From contig JBAZZE010000001.1 of assembly GCA_041658955.1 (NCBI GenBank), forward strand, positions 16,676 through 80,675: a DNA stretch of 64,000 nt, given 5' to 3'. A model generated the notes under the pieces. That model was not told where the DNA came from. It saw only the letters and a list, made by a program, of their open reading frames with translations, and did not search any database. Below, piece after piece: positions 679 to 25,737 of the stretch. Both the position numbers and the translations under genes were made by a program. The stretch's first letter is position 1; the number at the start of each line of letters is the position of its first letter. The stretch is from Candidatus Shapirobacteria bacterium. GTDB lineage: Bacteria > Patescibacteriota > Microgenomatia > UBA12405.

Positions 679-706
679 TTGACAAAAAAATAATCTAACC
701 TATAAT
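679..706 (+). promoter_or_regulatory. Sigma-70-like promoter (TTGACA -16 nt- TATAAT)
   Basis: TTGACA at 679-684 and TATAAT at 701-706 with a 16-nt AT-rich spacer. It sits in the intergenic region upstream of the leader ORF, tRNA-Trp and trpB. Confidence 0.45.
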
Positions 707-716
707 TACAACAATT

Positions 717-788
717 ATGAAATCATTCGTCTCTCAAGCTTGGTGGCAAGTCCAAAGCCCAACCGCGGGAGATATTGATCTGTCATAA
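717..788 (+). CDS. Putative trp leader peptide (23 aa, MKSFVSQAWWQVQSPTAGDIDLS) with tandem Trp codons
   Basis: ATG at 717 lies about 11 nt after the -10 box. Codons 9 and 10 are TGG TGG (741-746). Stop TAA at 786-788, 27 nt before the terminator hairpin. Confidence 0.4.
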   Translation: MKSFVSQAWWQVQSPTAGDIDLS

Positions 789-814
789 GCCATTCTTTTT
801 TCCAAAATATCACA

Positions 815-836
815 CCCGCGCGAGCGGGTTTTTTGT
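815..836 (+). terminator. Intrinsic terminator / attenuator hairpin
   Basis: CCCGC-GCGA-GCGGG is a 5-bp all-GC stem with a GNRA loop (815-828), followed by TTTTTTGTTTT. The upstream CGCGGG (764-769) can pair with the left arm CCCGCG as an alternative antiterminator. Confidence 0.5.
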
Positions 837-858
837 TTTCTGGCACCTTTTTAAAAAT

Positions 859-929
859 AGGAATGTAGTTCAATGGTAGAGCTCCTGTCTCCAAAACAGG
901 CGATGATGGTTCGATTCCGTCCGTTCCTG
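859..929 (+). tRNA. tRNA-Trp (anticodon CCA)
   Basis: Hand-folded cloverleaf. Acceptor AGGAATG/CGTTCCT, D-arm GTTC-AATGGTA-GAGC, anticodon stem CCTGT/ACAGG with loop CTCCAAA, T-arm GATGG-TTCGATT-CCGTC. CCA is not encoded. Confidence 0.8.
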
Positions 930-1034
930 CTATGACCTTTATACATAAAATATTAGTTATTACGGCACCTAGTCGGTGGCGGATGTTTTGGCGAAGTACT
1001 TATTTTTCCTTTATATCTTTAAATTTAAATTCTT

Positions 1035-2225
1035 ATGAAAAATTATCAAAAACTTATCAAAAACGGTTATTTTGGACAGTACGGTGGGCGTTTTGTTCCA
1101 CCTCAACTTGAAGATGTCTTGAAACATCTCGAAGTTGAGTACCATAAAGCGATCAAAGATCCCCAGTTCAAAAAGGAGTTGACTTATTGTTATCACCATT
1201 ACGCCGGTCGTCCTAGTCCACTTTATTTTGCCAAGAGGCTAACCAAAGTCTGCAACGGTGCCCAAATATATTTAAAACGAGAAGACCTCAATCATACCGG
1301 CGCTCACAAGATAAATAATGCTTTAGGCCAAGCACTTTTGGCTCGTAGAATGGGCAAAACCAAGTTAATTGCTGAAACCGGAGCTGGTCAGCATGGTGTG
1401 GCCACAGCTACTGTTGCTGCCATCTTTGGCATGAAATGTGATGTCTATATGGGTCAACGTGACATGGACAATCAAAACATTAATGTCTATCGCATGAAAC
1501 TTCTAGGTGCCAATGTTATTCCGGTAACTGGAGGACAGAAGACTCTCAAAGATGCGGTTGATGCGGCTCTTATGGCCTACATCAAAGAATCTGATGCTTA
1601 TTATCTATTAGGTTCAGCAGTTGGTCCTCACCCATACCCCTCTATGGTTCGTGATTTCCAAAAAATAATTGGTCAGGAAGCCAAAAGACAATTCCGAAAA
1701 ACTAATTCTTCGCTACCTGACTATTTAGTGGCCTGTATTGGCGGAGGTTCAAATGCTATTGGACTTTTTTATCCATTTATATTCAACAAAAGTGTCAGAA
1801 TGATTGGGGTGGAACCAGCTGGACTTGGTGCTAAAAGTGGTCGTCATGGCTTATCTTTAGGACAAGGAAAAGTCGGTCAAATCCATGGATATAACTGTCT
1901 TGTCCTTCAGGATAAGGATGGTCATATCGCTGAATCGTATTCAGCCGCTTCTGGACTTGATTATCCCGGTGTCGGGCCTGAACTTTGTTATCTAAGGGAT
2001 ATCGGCCGTCTGGAAACAACTGGTATCACCGATGCTATGGCTGTTAGCGCCTTCAAGGCCTTGTCTCAATTGGAGGGAATAATTCCTGCTCTTGAGTCAG
2101 CTCATGCAATAGCTTATGCCATTGAATTGGCCAAAACGTTATCAAAAGAAAAAACCATCATCGTCAACCTCTCTGGCCGAGGTGATAAAGATGTAGTTAA
2201 CGTTTATCAAAATTTAATGAAGTAG
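1035..2225 (+). CDS. trpB: Tryptophan synthase beta subunit (TrpB1-type)
   Basis: Carries the PLP-lysine motif LNHTGAHKINNALGQALLARRMGK. The 396-aa length and overall layout are typical of TrpB. Confidence 0.9.
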   Translation: MKNYQKLIKNGYFGQYGGRFVPPQLEDVLKHLEVEYHKAIKDPQFKKELTYCYHHYAGRPSPLYFAKRLTKVCNGAQIYLKREDLNHTGAHKINNALGQALLARRMGKTKLIAETGAGQHGVATATVAAIFGMKCDVYMGQRDMDNQNINVYRMKLLGANVIPVTGGQKTLKDAVDAALMAYIKESDAYYLLGSAVGPHPYPSMVRDFQKIIGQEAKRQFRKTNSSLPDYLVACIGGGSNAIGLFYPFIFNKSVRMIGVEPAGLGAKSGRHGLSLGQGKVGQIHGYNCLVLQDKDGHIAESYSAASGLDYPGVGPELCYLRDIGRLETTGITDAMAVSAFKALSQLEGIIPALESAHAIAYAIELAKTLSKEKTIIVNLSGRGDKDVVNVYQNLMK

Positions 2226-2268
2226 CAATTACTCCCCCTCCTCAATTGGGGAGGGGGAAAAAATATAA

Positions 2269-3747
2269 ATGTTAAACTCAAATATAAATATGGATCCATT
2301 AATACAAAAAAATAACGAAATCTTAGTCAAACTCGGTATCGAGTTTACATCAATCGAGCATCCTCCTTTTAAGGAGATCTTCGATTGTATGCGTCACCTT
2401 GGCTTACCCATTTCTGAAGGTTTTTCTACTTTAGTTATGAAAGCAGACGATCAGTATGTCGCTATTATTCGCCGGGATGATTGTCAGCTCGATCTTGATC
2501 GTGCTTGTCAACTTATTGGGTGTAAAAAATTAAGTCTAGCTTCACCTTCGGAATTTGAAGCCCTAACCCACACACCTTCTGGTGCCGCTTTTGTTGTTAA
2601 TCCGGTTACCGCCACCTACTTGGATCAAAAACTTTTTGAAAAAGAATTTCTTATGGGTGGTTCAGGTAGTCTTTCGATTACCAATCGATACCGTTCAGCT
2701 GATCTTAAAAAAATTCCTGGTAGTAAAGTTGTTGATATTGCGACCCTTAAAGCTCGCAAGCGCATCTTAACTGGGGATACCCCTAGTGGTCGCCTCCATC
2801 TCGGACATTATGTTGGTACTCTTGAAAACCGTGTTCGTCTTCAGGATGAATATGAGACTTTCATTCTTTTGGCCAATGTTCATGCTTATGCCAATAATTA
2901 TCGCGACTCAGAGACTATTAATAAAAACGTCTACGAAGTGTTTTTAGACAACTTAGCAGTGGGTATCGATCCCAATAAATCTACAATTTATCTAGAATCT
3001 GGTATCCCAGAGACCATGGAACTTTATAGTTATTTTCTAACTATGGTTACTCATGCCCGTGCACTCCGAAACCCGTCCGTCAAAGAAGAAATTAAATATA
3101 AAAAAATAGACCCATCCATCGGCTTTATCGTCTATCCCGTACTTCAAGCTGCCGATATTCTCGGTTTTAATGCCAACTTGGTCCCGGTCGGTGAAGACCA
3201 GTCTCCAGTCATCGAACAAACTAGAGAAATTGCCCGTGACTTCAATAAAGCTTTTGGGACTACTTTCAATATTCCCGATGCTATGATTGGCCGAGTTCCT
3301 CGTCTGGTTGGTACCGATGGTCTTACTAAGATGAGCAAAAGTGGTGGCAATGCCATCCTTCTCTCTGATGATGAAGCGACTCTTAAGAAGAAAATTCAAG
3401 CATGTTATACCGATCCTCAACGGGTTCACGCCACCGATCCAGGAAGAGTTGAAGGTAACCCTGTATTCGAATATCATCGTGCATTTAATCCCAATAAAGA
3501 AGAAGTAGCCGATTTGGAAGCTCGTTATCTGGTTGGTAAGGTGGGGGATAAAGAAGTTAAAGACAAACTCTTTATCGCCCTTAATACCTTTTTGGAACCT
3601 ATTCGCGCTAAAAGGAAATATTATGAAGACAATCCCGATATTGCCAAACAGATTCTTATCGAAGGCACCAAAAGAGCCAGAACCATCGTCGCTTCAGTAA
3701 CTAGTGAAGTCCGCGAAAAAATGGCATTTAACAAGCTTCTAAGTTGA
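2269..3747 (+). CDS. trpS: Tryptophanyl-tRNA synthetase with an N-terminal YbaK/ProX-like (tRNA_edit) domain
   Basis: C-terminal class I aaRS signatures: HLGHYVG (HIGH) and KMSKS. The N-terminal ~165 aa matches the YbaK/ProX deacylase pattern (LDLDRACQLIGCKKLSLASPSEFEALTHTPSGAAFVVNP ... GGSGSLSI). Confidence 0.85.
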   Translation: MLNSNINMDPLIQKNNEILVKLGIEFTSIEHPPFKEIFDCMRHLGLPISEGFSTLVMKADDQYVAIIRRDDCQLDLDRACQLIGCKKLSLASPSEFEALTHTPSGAAFVVNPVTATYLDQKLFEKEFLMGGSGSLSITNRYRSADLKKIPGSKVVDIATLKARKRILTGDTPSGRLHLGHYVGTLENRVRLQDEYETFILLANVHAYANNYRDSETINKNVYEVFLDNLAVGIDPNKSTIYLESGIPETMELYSYFLTMVTHARALRNPSVKEEIKYKKIDPSIGFIVYPVLQAADILGFNANLVPVGEDQSPVIEQTREIARDFNKAFGTTFNIPDAMIGRVPRLVGTDGLTKMSKSGGNAILLSDDEATLKKKIQACYTDPQRVHATDPGRVEGNPVFEYHRAFNPNKEEVADLEARYLVGKVGDKEVKDKLFIALNTFLEPIRAKRKYYEDNPDIAKQILIEGTKRARTIVASVTSEVREKMAFNKLLS

Positions 3748-3751
3748 TCAT

Positions 3752-4612
3752 ATGAGTTGGCTAGTACTAACTATCCTTGGTATGTTTGCAGTCGCTACTG
3801 CCGATGTTAGTCAAAAAATTACTCTCAAAGGCCAGTCACCACTTAGTAGTATTACCAATAACTTCCTTGTCTGGAATGGTATTGGTGTTTTGGCTTTGAT
3901 CTATTTTTTACTTTCAGGGCAAAAATTTCCGGTACTGACACCAACCTTTTATTATCAATTTGCCCCCATGACAGTTCTTTATTTTCTCGGGGGAACTTTT
4001 TATTATCAAAGTTTTAAAAGTAAAAGTGTTTCTATCTCGGCAGTTCTGGCCACCATATCTTCAGTTATGACCACTGTTTTGGGTATATTTCTCTATGGTG
4101 AGAGTACTCATCCTTTAAAATTTCTGGGTTCAGCTTTTATTATCGTGGCAATTTTCATGGTTAATTTTCATAAGAATTCTCATTTTGATAAATATAACCT
4201 TTATGCCCTCTTGGGTGGAATTTTTTATGGTTTTGCTTATGCTCTCGACAAACATTTTGTCCTCAACTCAACTCCTGACTTTTATCAAATTGTTCTCTGT
4301 TTTGCAGTTGGTATGGCTAGCCTTATCTTTAGCCCAGCCAGAATCGTTAAAGAACTTAAGCATTTTCACCGAGGACTTCTAATCTCAATAATATCTTCAA
4401 CCTTCTTTTTCTTTCTCTATCAGAAGTTTTACTTTCTGGCTTATACTCGCGGCGGGGAGGTGGGTCGGATTGATGTCCTTAATAACACCACCATCTTTAT
4501 CGTTATTTTACTTGAGTACTTTTTACTAAAAGACAGGACAAATCTCCGACAAAAGATTCTTTCGGCAATAATAGCAGTTATCGGAGCAACTTTACTTTCT
4601 ATCGCAAACTAA
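3752..4612 (+). CDS. Membrane protein, EamA/DMT-type transporter-like (about 10 TM)
   Basis: Hydrophobicity pattern with two repeated 5-TM halves. No sharper motif. Confidence 0.45.
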   Translation: MSWLVLTILGMFAVATADVSQKITLKGQSPLSSITNNFLVWNGIGVLALIYFLLSGQKFPVLTPTFYYQFAPMTVLYFLGGTFYYQSFKSKSVSISAVLATISSVMTTVLGIFLYGESTHPLKFLGSAFIIVAIFMVNFHKNSHFDKYNLYALLGGIFYGFAYALDKHFVLNSTPDFYQIVLCFAVGMASLIFSPARIVKELKHFHRGLLISIISSTFFFFLYQKFYFLAYTRGGEVGRIDVLNNTTIFIVILLEYFLLKDRTNLRQKILSAIIAVIGATLLSIAN

Positions 4613-5147: not shown

Positions 5148-5221
5148 GGCAGGATAGCTCAGTTGGTTAGAGCATCGCATTCATAACGCGAAGGTCGCGG
5201 GTTCAAGTCCCGCTCCTGCTA
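5148..5221 (+). tRNA. tRNA with anticodon CAU (elongator Met or lysidine-Ile2)
   Basis: Acceptor GGCAGGA/TCCTGCT (1:72 is G:U), D-arm GCTC-AGTTGGTTA-GAGC, anticodon loop TTCATAA, T-arm GCGGG-TTCAAGT-CCCGC. The anticodon stem is not three G-C pairs and 11:24 is Y:R, so it is not the initiator. Confidence 0.75.
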
Positions 5222-5224
5222 CTA

Positions 5225-5298
5225 GGGCATGTAGCTCAGTCGGTTAGAGCACCGATCTTATAAGTCGGGGGTCCATGGTTCGAGTCCATGCATGCCTA
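5225..5298 (+). tRNA. tRNA-Ile (anticodon UAU)
   Basis: Acceptor GGGCATG/CATGCCT, D-arm GCTC-AGTCGGTTA-GAGC, anticodon stem CCGAT/GTCGG with loop CTTATAA (U33, then TAT, then A37), 5-nt variable loop, T-arm CATGG-TTCGAGT-CCATG. Confidence 0.7.
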
Positions 5299-5301
5299 CT
5301 T

Positions 5302-5964
5302 GTGGAAAAACATATTCGAGCTAAGTCACTCAAACTTACTTCTACGGTCAAATGGTACGATCAAAATGCCAAAAAATTTGATTCTTTAATCTCATCTCTT
5401 GCCATCCCTGAACACATCAATACTTTTCGGGAACAATTGTTCCCGGGAGCCTTCGTACTTGATGCTGGTTGTGGTTCTGGACGTGATACCGCCCTTCTTG
5501 AAGCTAAAAAATTGATTTTAACTGGACTAGATCTTTCTACTGAGTTATTAAAAATTGCCCAAAAAAGGTGTCCCCAAGCCAAATTTGTTCAAGGTAATTT
5601 ACTCGATCTCCCTTTCAGAAACGAATCCTTTGATGGTGTTTGGGCCAATGCTTGTTTGGTTCACCTCAAAAATAATGTGGCAGTCAAAAAAGCCCTATCC
5701 GAATTCCACCGAGCACTAAAAAAAGACGGTGTTTTACATATATTTGTCAGAGCAAACCTCGGTGGTAAAAAGGTACTTTTTCATCAAGACGCTCAATCTC
5801 AATTCAAAAGACTCTTCCACAACTTTACCCTGTCTGAAGTCACCAGTTTACTATCCGAAGCTGGATTCAAAGAATTGTTTACTACCCAAACAAAAGAAAT
5901 AGACCAACACCCCCAAGGCCGAGCTGATGTCGAATGGATTCACTCAATTAGTCACAAAATCTAA
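5302..5964 (+). CDS. Class I SAM-dependent methyltransferase
   Basis: Motif I VLDAGCGSGRD, then a LDLS ... post-I acidic motif. The ORF-track start at 5275 lies inside the tRNA, so the true start is probably GTG 5302 or later. Confidence 0.65.
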   Translation: MEKHIRAKSLKLTSTVKWYDQNAKKFDSLISSLAIPEHINTFREQLFPGAFVLDAGCGSGRDTALLEAKKLILTGLDLSTELLKIAQKRCPQAKFVQGNLLDLPFRNESFDGVWANACLVHLKNNVAVKKALSEFHRALKKDGVLHIFVRANLGGKKVLFHQDAQSQFKRLFHNFTLSEVTSLLSEAGFKELFTTQTKEIDQHPQGRADVEWIHSISHKI

Positions 5965-6007: not shown

Positions 6008-6080
6008 TGGTTGCGGGGCCGGGAGTTGAACCCGGCCTGTGAGATTATGAGCCTCACGTGCAGCCGTACACTACCCCGCA
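6008..6080 (-). tRNA. tRNA with anticodon CAU (Met or Ile2); CCA encoded
   Basis: The reverse complement folds with acceptor TGCGGGG/CCCCGCA, anticodon loop CTCATAA, T-arm CCGGG-TTCAACT-CCCGG, and a genomic ACCA at the 3' end. Confidence 0.7.
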
Positions 6081-6136: not shown

Positions 6137-6550
6137 TCACAATAATCCTTTTGTAAACAGCTTCCACCATTTTATCAAATTTGGCTCAGTTTCCACTTCA
6201 TTTACTTCGCTAGTAATTCTCTCCTCTTTTGTAATCGACGGTAGGGCAATCCACCTATCATTCTCAGTACCTACACCAAAGTATTGCCTCTGATTCCGGC
6301 TTATTGTAGCGCTACTCGTCGATTCTTCTACTAATCGTTGGTACTTCTTTTTCTCTATTTCTAGCTCGTTCACTCTTCTTTCTAGAGTATCAACCCTATT
6401 CCTGGCTGCTTTTAAAGTTATAAATTGCCGGTAAATGTTAATTAGCGAAGAATAAATGATATATCCCAGTATTACGTAAAAAAGGATTTGTTTTGCCCGT
6501 TGCCACCGTTCTGATTGTGTTTTGTCCTTATTTGTGTTACTATAAGTCAT
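6137..6550 (-). CDS. FtsB/DivIC-like septum-formation initiator (one TM plus coiled coil)
   Basis: One N-terminal TM helix (ILFYVILGYIIYSSLINIY) followed by a heptad coiled coil (RVDTLERRVNELEIEKKKYQRL). Confidence 0.4.
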   Translation of the reverse strand: MTYSNTNKDKTQSERWQRAKQILFYVILGYIIYSSLINIYRQFITLKAARNRVDTLERRVNELEIEKKKYQRLVEESTSSATISRNQRQYFGVGTENDRWIALPSITKEERITSEVNEVETEPNLIKWWKLFTKGLL

Positions 6551-6573
6551 CTTTTCAAGTTAAATTAAATATC

Positions 6574-7440
6574 ATGAGTCAAATAACCATCGATGCTGCC
6601 CTCAATTTGTTTACTGGAGCGCTTGCCAAAAAAGGTAAGTCTACCAATACTATTGTAGCCTACAAGGGAGACATCAACCAGCTTATTAACTATCTTAAAA
6701 CCCAAGAGATCATTACCATAGATGGTATTTTGGCTAGCCACATTGAAGGCTTCAAAAAAGATTTAATTAATAACAACTATACTGCCAAATCAGTTTCTAG
6801 AAAATTAAATTCCATCAAAAACTTTTTCTCATTTTTAGTTTCTGAAGGTGTAATTACTAAGGATCCTTCCACCGAAGTTAAGCATCCAAAATACGAAAAT
6901 GATATTCCTAAGATTCTCAAACCATTAGAATATCGTTCACTTCGTGATGCTTGTCGCAATGATGTCCGTTCTACTGCTATTGTCGAACTCATGCTTCAAT
7001 CAGGACTTCGAATTAAAGAGATCGAAAACCTAAAATTAGAAAATATTCGCGAGAATGACATTTTCATCGAAAGCTATGAGAGTCACTCATCCCGTGTAGT
7101 TCCTTTAAACAATTCTGCTAAGACTGCTCTAAAAAAATACCTCGATGAAGGCCGTTACCAAACAAAAGCCAAGAACGTTTTTGTTACCAAGACTGGTCGT
7201 CATCTCTTAGCCCGTAATATCCGTAGTTTACTCAATCGTTACTTCGACAAAGCCGATATCAAAGGTGTCAAGGTCAACGACTTGAGAAATACCTTTATCG
7301 TTTTCCAACTAAAATCAGGCGTACCTATTGATGTCGTCTCTCAAGTTGTTGGACATAAGCGTATTTCCACTACCGAAAAATATCTTGAACTCATCGATTC
7401 CAAAGAAGAATCAAAGGGAATCAAGTTAAAAGAATTGTAA
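6574..7440 (+). CDS. Tyrosine recombinase, XerC/XerD/phage-integrase family
   Basis: N-terminal SAM-like domain. Catalytic residues present: R (GLRIKE), LRNTF, HKRISTTEKYLE (H-x-x-R ... Y). I placed the start at ATG 6574 (MSQITID) rather than 6493, which overlaps the upstream gene. Confidence 0.75.
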   Translation: MSQITIDAALNLFTGALAKKGKSTNTIVAYKGDINQLINYLKTQEIITIDGILASHIEGFKKDLINNNYTAKSVSRKLNSIKNFFSFLVSEGVITKDPSTEVKHPKYENDIPKILKPLEYRSLRDACRNDVRSTAIVELMLQSGLRIKEIENLKLENIRENDIFIESYESHSSRVVPLNNSAKTALKKYLDEGRYQTKAKNVFVTKTGRHLLARNIRSLLNRYFDKADIKGVKVNDLRNTFIVFQLKSGVPIDVVSQVVGHKRISTTEKYLELIDSKEESKGIKLKEL

Positions 7441-24726: not shown

Positions 24727-25413
24727 ATGGGTTACGCTGGAAAAATAGCCGAAAGAGAACTGGCAATTTCACTAAGAAAAAAAGGATATTCTTATAACCA
24801 AATTCAAAAATCTACTGGGTTGTCAAAAGATACTATATCTAGAACTTGTAGACAGGTTATTTTGACTAAAGATCAAATAAAAAATCTTGAAACACGAAGA
24901 ACTGCAGGTCAGATGTTGGCTTCAATTAAAGGTGCAAAGTCAAATCAGCTTAAGAAAGAGATCATACAAAAACAGTTATTAGAAGAAGGGGTCCGGCAGG
25001 TAGGTGAGTTAACTCGAAGGGATAAGTTCATATTTGGCATTTCACTTTATCTTGGTGAAGGCTCGAAAACAGGAAGCGCAGTTGAGTTTACTAATGCAGA
25101 CCCCATAGCTGTTAAGTTCATGCTCAATTGGTTCGTTGAATTCTGTGAAATACCTCAGGAAAGTATCAAGGCCAGTCTTTGGATTCATGACAACCTGAGC
25201 GAACCTGAAGCCAAAAAATATTGGTCAAATTTATTGGGCATCGAAATATCACAATTCGATAAGTCCTATATTGCAAAAAACAGGGTAGATAGTCGAAAAA
25301 TACGCAAAAATATTCACAAATATGGAATAATAAAGATTCGATACTATAGTGTAGCCAAATTACGCCTTATATTAGGTTGGATAAAGGGTGTACTTTCTAG
25401 TTACTCAGGATGA
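24727..25413 (+). CDS. HTH-domain protein with a LAGLIDADG-like segment (possible free-standing homing-endonuclease-like gene)
   Basis: N-terminal HTH (GYSYNQIQKSTGLSKDTISR). A central segment FIFGISLYLGEGSKTG resembles a single LAGLIDADG motif. The gene ends 40 bp upstream of the intron-containing tRNA. Confidence 0.35.
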   Translation: MGYAGKIAERELAISLRKKGYSYNQIQKSTGLSKDTISRTCRQVILTKDQIKNLETRRTAGQMLASIKGAKSNQLKKEIIQKQLLEEGVRQVGELTRRDKFIFGISLYLGEGSKTGSAVEFTNADPIAVKFMLNWFVEFCEIPQESIKASLWIHDNLSEPEAKKYWSNLLGIEISQFDKSYIAKNRVDSRKIRKNIHKYGIIKIRYYSVAKLRLILGWIKGVLSSYSG

Positions 25414-25452: not shown

Positions 25453-25737
25453 TCCCCCTTAGCTCAGTGGTAGAGCGCTCGCCTGTTCCTATAGAGCAGC
25501 TTTCACGAGTAATCGTGATCGAAAATCGGGAGAATTGCGTGAAACCTAACCTGTCGCAAGACAATATGGCAACCCGCAGCCGAGCTCCAACTTTGGTTGG
25601 AGAAGGTTCAGAGACTAGGTGAGTACACCTTTAAGCACCCGAGTCCCATTTATGGGATATGATATAGTCCAAGCCTGTTAGAAATACAGGATTTACTTGT
25701 AAGCGATTGGTCCGAAGTTCGAATCTTCGAGGGGGAG
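25453..25737 (+). tRNA. tRNA gene interrupted by a 213-nt group I intron; exons give tRNA-Asn (GUU) on the most likely junctions
   Basis: 5' exon 25453-25486 (acceptor TCCCCCT, U8, A9, D-arm GCTC-AGTGGTA-GAGC, anticodon stem CTCGC, loop C-T-G-T). 3' exon 25700-25737 (T-A-A, GCGAT, variable TGGTC, T-arm CGAAG-TTCGAAT-CTTCG, acceptor AGGGGGA, discriminator G). The exon ends in U and the intron ends in G, as group I splicing requires. Confidence 0.7.
25487..25699 (+). ncRNA. Group I self-splicing intron (ORF-less) in the tRNA anticodon loop
   Basis: Conserved core elements are present: P AATTGCGTGAAA (25533-25544), Q AACCCGCAGC (25571-25580), R GTTCAGAGACTA (25606-25617, exact consensus), S GATATAGTCC (25661-25670). 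P1 pairing CUGU/GCAG with U.G at the 5' splice site; terminal G at 25699. Confidence 0.7.

Follow-up and report, generated by a model that had tools for sequence, protein, structure and literature searches.

An INS-superfamily domain without the canonical lysine is fused to tryptophanyl-tRNA synthetase in Patescibacteria

A stretch of 64,000 nucleotides from the genome of a Candidatus Shapirobacteria bacterium (assembly GCA_041658955.1, contig JBAZZE010000001.1, positions 16,676 to 80,675 of the forward strand; hereafter the window) contains a gene in which an editing-type domain of the YbaK/ProX fold precedes a complete tryptophanyl-tRNA synthetase (TrpRS). The fusion is genuine and in frame, and is not an artefact. 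The appended domain belongs to the INS superfamily and lacks the lysine used by its characterised members. The favoured reading, on which our judgement is evenly balanced, is that it is a functional post-transfer editing (deacylase) module acting in cis on TrpRS and representing a lysine-less INS branch. This reading would account for the observed architecture, fold, conservation, covariation between positions 53 and 68 and operon context by a catalytic activity, a cis mechanism and a substrate that are themselves proposed.

The preliminary description of this DNA had claimed a YbaK/ProX-type domain fused to TrpRS, and this is correct: an in-frame INS-superfamily domain is followed by a complete class I core (Table 1). 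In a Pfam scan residues 31-148 match PF04073 (tRNA_edit) with E=4.5e-14 over profile positions 1-122 of 123, scoring 53.0 bits with the full protein and 55.2 bits with the N-terminus alone against a gathering score of 25.5, while residues 163-443 match PF00579 (E=2e-65). The NCBIfam equivalog TIGR00233 (trpS) is matched by residues 163-486 at 269.3 bits, the cutoff being 176.75. Identical proteins are encoded in independent assemblies, P0012 (ENA) and P0013 (NCBI/JGI), the latter named 'MAG: tryptophan--tRNA ligase [Candidatus Shapirobacteria bacterium]'. The open reading frame (ORF) may begin at position 2269 or at Met8 (ATG 2290), as in the NCBI model of P0013; an 'ML..N..M' N-terminal extension is also kept by several homologues.

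A search covering 5.8 billion clustered proteins placed 56 proteins of at least 440 aa among its best 120 matches, and both PF04073 and PF00579 are precomputed on all 56. The fused homologues, dozens of them 485-495 aa long, reach down to 54% identity and belong to Shapirobacteria, the Microgenomates group, WS6/Dojkabacteria and unclassified Patescibacteria. An AlphaFold2 model built from a 49-sequence alignment has a mean predicted local distance difference test score (pLDDT) of 91.3 and a predicted TM score of 0.76. The boundary between the two domains is itself confidently modelled, with pLDDT above 90 throughout, and only a very short linker separates the domains: the editing domain has its last strand at aa 158-160, the first Rossmann strand of TrpRS follows at aa 165-170 and the HIGH motif at 177-180. 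The fusion is not artefactual, since the frame is continuous, the same ORF recurs in independent assemblies and more than 50 diverged homologues share it.

Conservation was scored over 49 full-length fused homologues of 54-81% identity. In the synthetase core H177, G179, H180, G308, D310, Q311, K354, M355, K357 and S358 are invariant in this set, and S356 is conserved in at least 90% of it. The best structural matches of the core are all TrpRS, the closest solved structure being Deinococcus radiodurans TrpRS II (PDB 1yi8; 49% identity, TM 0.93 on the target). That enzyme shares the subtype signature around HIGH, but is an auxiliary second TrpRS without an appended editing domain; it is reported to charge 4-nitro- and 5-hydroxy-tryptophan. 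The fused enzyme, by contrast, appears to occupy the housekeeping position, because its locus is syntenic with that of the unfused TrpRS of relatives (L25 ... TrpRS ... DivIC-XerD), and a tRNA-Trp with G73 lies next to it; this view covers 64 kb of the genome, however, and the relatives L002, L007 and L012 have a second, archaeal-type TrpRS beside the fused gene. When 57 fused and 64 unfused cores were compared column by column, no active-site position separated them and only junction residues 160-162 differed. Relaxed TrpRS specificity in the fused enzymes was accordingly rejected.

The N-terminal domain has the YbaK/ProX alpha/beta fold, and its family profile matches APE2540 and the Staphylococcus aureus ProRS-INS domain at E of about 5e-17; at the level of fold and Pfam family, INS superfamily membership is secure. 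Judged by its profile scores it is nevertheless not YbaK proper, falling far below the YbaK equivalog TIGR00011 (19.7-22.9 bits vs 153.25) and NF007951 (15.6 bits vs 243). All characterised members of the INS superfamily use one strictly conserved lysine, which lies in the K-T-L strand (Ec ProRS K279, Hi YbaK K46; PMC11286415). The preliminary description had proposed an alignment to this catalytic lysine as a check, and here the expectation fails. In all pairwise and profile alignments (2dxa, 1dbu, 1wdv, 5znj, 3op6) the canonical site is taken by Ser53, within S-T-L-V-M-K, and across the fused homologues the position is Ser in 31, Ala in 13 and Pro in 5. The GXXXP loop corresponds to G105-A-A-F-V109; its Gly is kept in 48 of the 49 homologues, while the Pro, lost here, is confined among fused members to deeper branches, for example P0098 and P0101 (G-I-V-P-P). 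Because the canonical Lys is absent and GXXXP is degenerate, the domain is not a canonical YbaK or ProXp-ala, and deacylase activity cannot be assumed.

Other positions of the pocket have been kept. R69, D71, D119, G131 and G133 are invariant, T54, R68 and G105 are each kept in 90% or more of the homologues, and position 58 is Lys in 42 of them (86%). The N-terminal domain as a whole averages 44% column identity; invariant pocket residues against this background indicate that the fusion is under selection. An exhaustive profile search with the domain, run over 1.84 billion representatives at 50% identity, gave 5559 matches at E<1e-3. The window protein and the best 150 of these representatives yielded 147 scorable alignments, in which a basic residue at 68 is found in none of the 79 sequences with Lys53 and in 44 of the 68 without it (Fisher p=2e-20, ignoring phylogeny). 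Both structural models show strands 51-59 and 62-69 as a tight hairpin that brings residue 68 opposite residue 53. From this modelled arrangement we infer that the catalytic cation may have moved to the neighbouring strand, R68 replacing the lysine. K58 was considered as a substitute lysine and rejected, a basic residue at 58 being equally frequent with Lys53 (46/79) and without it (44/68).

The lack of the lysine is not confined to the fusions. The closest free-standing relatives (150-160 aa) are likewise without it (x-P/S/A-T-L), and among the best 150 representatives lysine-bearing relatives appear only from E of about 1e-25 downward. In terms of aligned sequence, fused and free-standing members together constitute a lysine-less clade of the INS superfamily.

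The spread of the fusion, which the preliminary description had suggested surveying, is wide among Patescibacteria relatives: the best 150 of the 5559 representatives include at least 14 TrpRS-fusion clusters at 50% identity. Pfam and NCBIfam scans of long family members revealed several variant architectures. Two editing domains precede TrpRS in P0030 (652 aa), P0050, P0052 and P0132, and P0048, P0079 and P0198 (724-744 aa) combine a B3/4 domain (the PheRS-beta/CtdA editing fold) with the editing domain and TrpRS. In P0143 the editing domain is C-terminal to TrpRS, and the same RRDD-type lysine-less domain is carried by bacterial TyrRS (P0167 and the four clusters P0281-P0284). A lysine-bearing YbaK-like domain was also observed at the N-terminus of an archaeal-type TyrRS (P0182, 527 aa) and at the C-terminus of AspRS (P0237, 744 aa), so that editing-domain fusions occur on TrpRS, TyrRS and AspRS; a description of these two fusions outside ProRS was not found in the literature.

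Fused and unfused TrpRS interleave on a rough neighbour-joining tree of the core (without bootstrap), in which fused P0022 and unfused P0051 form a sister pair, and the idea of a single fused clade was rejected on this ground. The locus of unfused P0054 shows no domain remnant upstream. Given the interleaved tree and this locus, the fusion looks old within the Patescibacteria radiation and repeatedly lost, at least as far as sequences indicate. Repeated loss is typical of accessory fidelity factors. When one genome per GTDB species was scanned with the full-length alignment, most of the TrpRS recovered were unfused and belonged to other phyla. No fusion occurred on TrpRS of the same subtype in Chloroflexi, Spirochaetes, Actinobacteria and further phyla, and the only fused forms were at two Patescibacteria loci, L011 and L012. 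The apparent N-terminal extensions of L028, L032, L043 and L079 were rejected as editing domains, as they are not homologous.

In the proposed mechanism about five residues tether the editing module to the first Rossmann strand of a TrpRS of housekeeping type, which would supply the specificity for tRNATrp. Once the tRNA has been aminoacylated, its CCA end would move out of the synthetic site and into the neighbouring editing pocket, and an ester with a non-cognate amino acid would be hydrolysed there. Arg68, on the neighbouring β-strand directly opposite Ser53, would provide the cation in place of the K-T-L lysine, and the glycine-rich loops (G105, G131, G133) together with D71 and D119 would keep the pocket. 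Active editing is favoured because the pocket residues are conserved, the charge appears relocated, the linker is short and rigid, the architecture has been elaborated repeatedly and the partners are almost exclusively TrpRS and TyrRS. On this comparison of sequences an active, rewired deacylase seems more likely than a dead domain.

The substrates would arise from an impure pool of salvaged Trp, the candidates being D-Trp-tRNATrp or tRNATrp charged with indole-derived Trp analogues, which TrpB or TrpB2 could make from indole analogues. Such substrates appear likely from the company of the enzyme, whose co-expression under a predicted Trp-codon attenuator extends to tRNATrp and to Trp suppliers; these are TrpB here, and in relatives an amino-acid racemase and/or TrpB2. 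The D-aminoacyl-tRNA deacylase (DTD) classically acts on D-Tyr-, D-Trp- and D-Asp-tRNAs (PMC1807948). D-Trp is a candidate because these substrates match the synthetases found fused (Trp, Tyr, Asp) and because racemases are neighbours. For Trp analogues speaks the 49% identity of the core to D. radiodurans TrpRS II, the enzyme reported to charge nitro- and hydroxy-Trp. The preliminary description had named Tyr, Phe or an indole analogue as the amino acid to be cleared; the genomic context points to D-Trp or salvaged Trp analogues at least as much. Its restriction of YbaK-type domains to tRNAPro was too narrow, since INS members also clear Ser-, Thr- and aminobutyrate (Abu)-tRNAs (PMC11295145). 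We tentatively suggest, as a possibility short of a favoured conclusion, that Patescibacteria equip TrpRS, and in some cases TyrRS, with a lysine-less INS domain carrying a relocated Arg for chiral or analogue proofreading, because their reduced genomes would make them acquire Trp through salvage (racemase, or TrpB or TrpB2 from indole) and not by de novo synthesis; tethered to the synthetase, the domain would replace DTD functionally or complement it. In a tblastn search an approximate E. coli DTD query gave no match for dtd in the window or in about 90 loci, which are loci and not whole genomes.

In another fused lineage, L091 (5101-9909) and L009 (4090-7229) contain tRNA-Trp, an amino-acid racemase (TIGR00035, 131-158 bits) and then a multi-domain enzyme, edit-edit-TrpRS or B3/4-edit-TrpRS; L091 has in addition a SerK-like fragment and TrpB2 (NF009057, 692 bits). 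The free-standing P0003 lies two genes downstream of a homologous racemase, just upstream of which is a gene for a TrpR-like helix-turn-helix protein. L005 (3-2458) was also listed among the racemase-bearing loci.

Several points weigh against cis editing. No more than two independent lineages show the racemase association. Chloroflexi, moreover, have an unfused TrpRS of the same subtype near trpB, so that this adjacency is not specific to the fusion and was rejected as its signature. TrpRS is not among the 10 of 23 synthetases for which editing has been described (PMC7373986), and the likeness of fused and unfused cores at the active site gives no sign of a relaxed specificity in need of editing. 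The domain appears dispensable, having been lost many times among very close TrpRS relatives. The correlation between positions 53 and 68 takes no account of phylogeny, and the geometry of R68 derives from DSSP strand pairing rather than from coordinates. Finally, with both the canonical Lys and the GXXXP Pro absent here, the domain could be inactive.

This last point leads to the explanation that competes best, namely a non-catalytic appendage: a degenerate editing fold retained for binding or handing off the tRNA acceptor end, or for dimerisation or another interaction, which would aid the capture of tRNATrp. Besides the missing Lys and Pro, the ease with which the domain is lost fits such a role. 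Selection for tRNA capture is hinted at by L008, where the gene after the fused TrpRS is of the Trbp111 tRNA_bind type, and an editing-like domain on the Plasmodium TrpRS offers a precedent (PMC3240968). Against this, the invariant or nearly invariant residues cluster in pocket motifs (T54, R68/R69, D71, G105, D119, G131-x-G133) and are not spread over the surface, the positive charge has apparently been relocated and not lost, and tandem duplication and the addition of B3/4 fit catalytic diversification better. We consider a non-catalytic role possible but doubtful. The AlaX-like domain of the Plasmodium enzyme is said, in later work, to bind tRNA without editing activity.

An unlikely alternative is that the domain is a general trans-editing factor that rides on TrpRS and clears Ala-, Cys-, Ser-, Thr- or Abu-tRNAs made by other synthetases, the fusion serving only to secure co-expression or localisation near the translation machinery. 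Known INS factors do act in trans with broad tRNA specificity (PMC11295145), free-standing lysine-less members of 150-160 aa are common (P0003, P0005, P0136, P0138, P0139 and others), and the fused domain is dispensable in close relatives. The partner, however, is almost always TrpRS, in the clusters counted above and in three domain orders, and otherwise its paralogue TyrRS, a pattern that links the domain to aromatic class Ic charging. In addition, WS6 already possesses an INS domain on its ProRS, encoded a few kb away from the fused TrpRS, and the very short, rigid linker suits a cis mechanism.

By analogy with YbaK-like domains of non-tRNA proteins, the fold might instead be a small-molecule sensor that binds Trp, an analogue or a nucleotide and exerts allosteric control over TrpRS; this is improbable, since its best matches in structure and in sequence are genuine members of the editing family and the B3/4 and TyrRS variants point to aminoacyl-tRNA chemistry. 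That the fusion is a frameshift, a mis-assembly or two neighbouring genes read as one, as the preliminary description allowed, is so improbable that it was rejected on the continuous frame, independent assemblies, diverged full-length homologues and confidently modelled junction described above, even though the two parts are separate ORFs (191 aa and 272 aa) in L006, where the split probably reflects a frameshift or sequencing error. The split copy in L006 follows an aromatic amino-acid biosynthesis operon.

The fused gene is part of a Trp module, in which a promoter, a leader attenuator with tandem Trp codons, tRNA-Trp, trpB, the edit-trpS gene and a transporter follow one another (Table 1).

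Table 1. Coordinates of the fused gene, its motifs and the Trp module in the window
Feature	Position	Strand	Remarks
Predicted sigma-70-type promoter	679..706	+	TTGACA-16 nt-TATAAT; 12/12 consensus positions; pattern match only
Leader peptide ORF	717..788	+	MKSFVSQAWWQVQSPTAGDIDLS followed by stop; 23 codons; tandem Trp codons TGGTGG 741-746 (W9-W10)
Attenuator RNA	764..839	+	Candidate antiterminator vs intrinsic terminator
Candidate antiterminator	764-780 pairing with 807-821	+	CGCGGG.AGATAT (764-780)
Intrinsic terminator	814-829 and T-run to 839	+	ACCCGC-GCGA-GCGGGT; terminator scan
tRNA-Trp	859..930	+	Anticodon CCA; bacterial type (A1:U72, G73); ARAGORN; Rfam tRNA 63.2 bits
trpB, tryptophan synthase beta	1035..2225	+	TIGR00263 569 bits vs cutoff 392; PF00291
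G+C hairpin, trpB-trpS spacer	2232..2258	+	CUCCCCCUCC / GGGGAGGGGG; 10-11 bp, all G/C
Fused INS-like editing domain and TrpRS gene	2269..3747	+	Single uninterrupted ORF, 492 aa
N-terminal YbaK/ProX-fold domain	aa 1-162, nt 2269..2754	+	Pfam match aa 31-148 = nt 2359-2712
Key N-domain positions	S53 nt 2425-2427; K58; R68-R69-D70-D71 nt 2470-2481		
Further N-domain positions	G105-A-A-F-V nt 2581-2595; D119; G130-G-S-G-S134		
TrpRS catalytic core and anticodon-binding helices	aa 163-492, nt 2755..3744	+	
Class I HIGH motif	aa 177-180, nt 2797-2808	+	HLGH
Trp-pocket GxDQ motif	aa 308-311, nt 3190-3201	+	GEDQ
KMSKS	aa 354-358, nt 3328-3342	+	
EamA/DMT-family transporter	3752..4612	+	PF00892 E=4e-22; starts 5 nt after trpS

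When the 3' arm of the terminator is left out of the folding, the alternative helix has a predicted energy of -13.9 kcal/mol, and the 5' half of this competing helix lies within the conserved 'GCGGGAGAT' (codons A-G-D). Compensatory changes preserve the terminator in 5 related loci. Homologous Trp-rich leader peptides also precede tRNA-Trp or TrpRS in L002, L012, L007 (two copies) and L004, in the last case (MLMLSKTVSQIWWQFWSEAGEVLVA) upstream of an unfused TrpRS. The match to the Rfam family Trp_leader (RF00513) is below threshold (19.7 bits vs 41, E=0.66). From its predicted elements the region is a trp-type ribosome-mediated attenuator outside the curated enterobacterial Rfam family, and a description of such an attenuator for Patescibacteria was not found. 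It shares with the E. coli trpL type a promoter, a short leader containing tandem Trp codons, a T-run, and antiterminator and terminator hairpins that exclude each other; unlike that type, it precedes tRNATrp, trpB, trpS and a transporter instead of a full trp operon, its host belongs to the Patescibacteria and it scores below the Rfam threshold. A 97-nt 'tRNA-Asn(att)' called by ARAGORN in L004 (5799-5895) and L010 (9805-9901) was set aside as a probable false call, as it overlaps the Trp leader and terminator.

No trpA was seen within the inspected stretch, 1-7.4 kb of the window. The hairpin between trpB and trpS has a minimum free energy of -23.8 kcal/mol (z = -2.75), and the only Shine-Dalgarno-like GGAGG upstream of trpS sits in its 3' arm. 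It is not a typical terminator, because no T-run follows, and its role may lie in translational coupling or occlusion or in RNA stability. The EamA transporter gene is probably co-transcribed with trpS; in L002 an MFS transporter takes the same position.

Further observations concern the surroundings of TrpRS in relatives. Three Microgenomates/Shapirobacteria genomes carry, directly upstream of the fused bacterial-type TrpRS, a cassette with an archaeal-type TrpRS of 388 aa (NF008927, 260 bits), located at 2658-4858 in L002, 2269-4466 in L007 and 5272-7460 in L012. The cassette also encodes a conserved 320-aa protein without family match and a second tRNA-Trp copy of archaeal/eukaryal-type identity (G1:C72, A73), and both types of tRNA-Trp are present in L007. 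Its gene content suggests that these tiny genomes may have a second TrpRS/tRNATrp pair, potentially an orthogonal one. In L008 the fused TrpRS is preceded by an AstE/AspA-like hydrolase and followed by the free-standing Trbp111-type protein (119 aa, 6468-6827). The ProRS of WS6 (L003, 1-1040) lies about 5 kb from the fused TrpRS, and both INS-type domains thus coexist there.

Elsewhere in the window, a cluster of tRNA genes beside TrpRS (5148-5299 and 6008-6080) contains Met(CAT) next to Ile(TAT) and a further Met(CAT), and recurs in L002, L004, L007, L010, L011 and L012; a genome-encoded tRNA-Ile with the UAU anticodon is unusual in bacteria. A methyltransferase-like ORF (5275-5964) overlaps the end of tRNA-Ile, and its true start is therefore probably further downstream. 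A group I intron at 25477-25691 (Rfam 63.8 bits, gathering score 50) lies directly downstream of a 228-aa ORF resembling LAGLIDADG-type homing endonucleases (24727-25413); no rRNA gene was detected in the window.

To our knowledge, textbooks treat TrpRS as a synthetase that needs no editing. A conserved editing domain on it, spread across a large bacterial radiation, suggests either unrecognised fidelity problems at Trp codons in organisms that scavenge amino acids, or a new, non-catalytic use of the INS fold. Should the domain indeed be dedicated to proofreading, class Ic synthetases would have their first described editing function. The lysine-less clade with its covarying Arg/Lys68 bears on the claim that all characterised INS proteins use Lys and GXXXP, and is a natural experiment on active-site rewiring; the variant architectures (tandem, B3/4 with INS, C-terminal, TyrRS) form a ready panel for biochemical comparison. 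The Trp module, for its part, would place classic ribosome-mediated Trp attenuation in Patescibacteria, over tRNATrp and TrpRS, as its predicted signals suggest.

Neither a TrpRS-INS/YbaK fusion nor editing by a bacterial TrpRS was found described in the full-text literature, and the literature searched held no description of synthetase editing or of DTD in the candidate phyla radiation. The fused proteins themselves are already present in public databases, annotated simply as tryptophan--tRNA ligase. The only described editing-type N-terminal appendage of a TrpRS that was found is the AlaX-like domain of Plasmodium falciparum (PMC3240968). It differs in its fold (AlaX/second additional domain), in its eukaryotic cytosolic-type TrpRS and in its restriction to alveolates, and no AlaX-type family or structure was matched by the window domain in family and structure searches. 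DTD1, DTD2 and DTD3, which clear D-Trp-, D-Tyr- and D-Asp-tRNAs (PMC1807948), are a possible functional analogue, for the window protein by hypothesis only; their fold is unrelated to INS, and there is no evidence of enantioselectivity for any INS member.

Within the INS superfamily, APE2540 of Aeropyrum pernix (1wdv) and TTHA1699/ProXp-x of Thermus thermophilus (2cx5) are free-standing proteins with about 20% identity to the N-terminal domain, and unlike it they keep the K-T-L lysine and a G-x-x-P-P loop. More generally, the characterised members have Lys where the fused domain has Ser, Ala or Pro together with a basic residue at 68. A 2024 review states that, apart from the ProRS-linked forms, INS proteins consist of a single domain (PMC11295145), whereas the window domain is fused to TrpRS. 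The closest parallel in architecture is offered by the ProXp-ala-ProRS of Plasmodium and Trypanosoma and by the INS domain of bacterial ProRS, in which, as here, an INS domain is covalently joined to a synthetase, in their case the one whose tRNA it edits; in the eukaryotic fusions it is also N-terminal (PMC11286415, PMC11295145). The partner in those fusions, however, is a class II enzyme with a known need for editing (Ala, Cys), while the partner here is TrpRS, a class Ic enzyme with no described editing. The fold and the tethering of an editing module to a synthetase are thus known, and the partner, the active-site configuration and the lineage are new.

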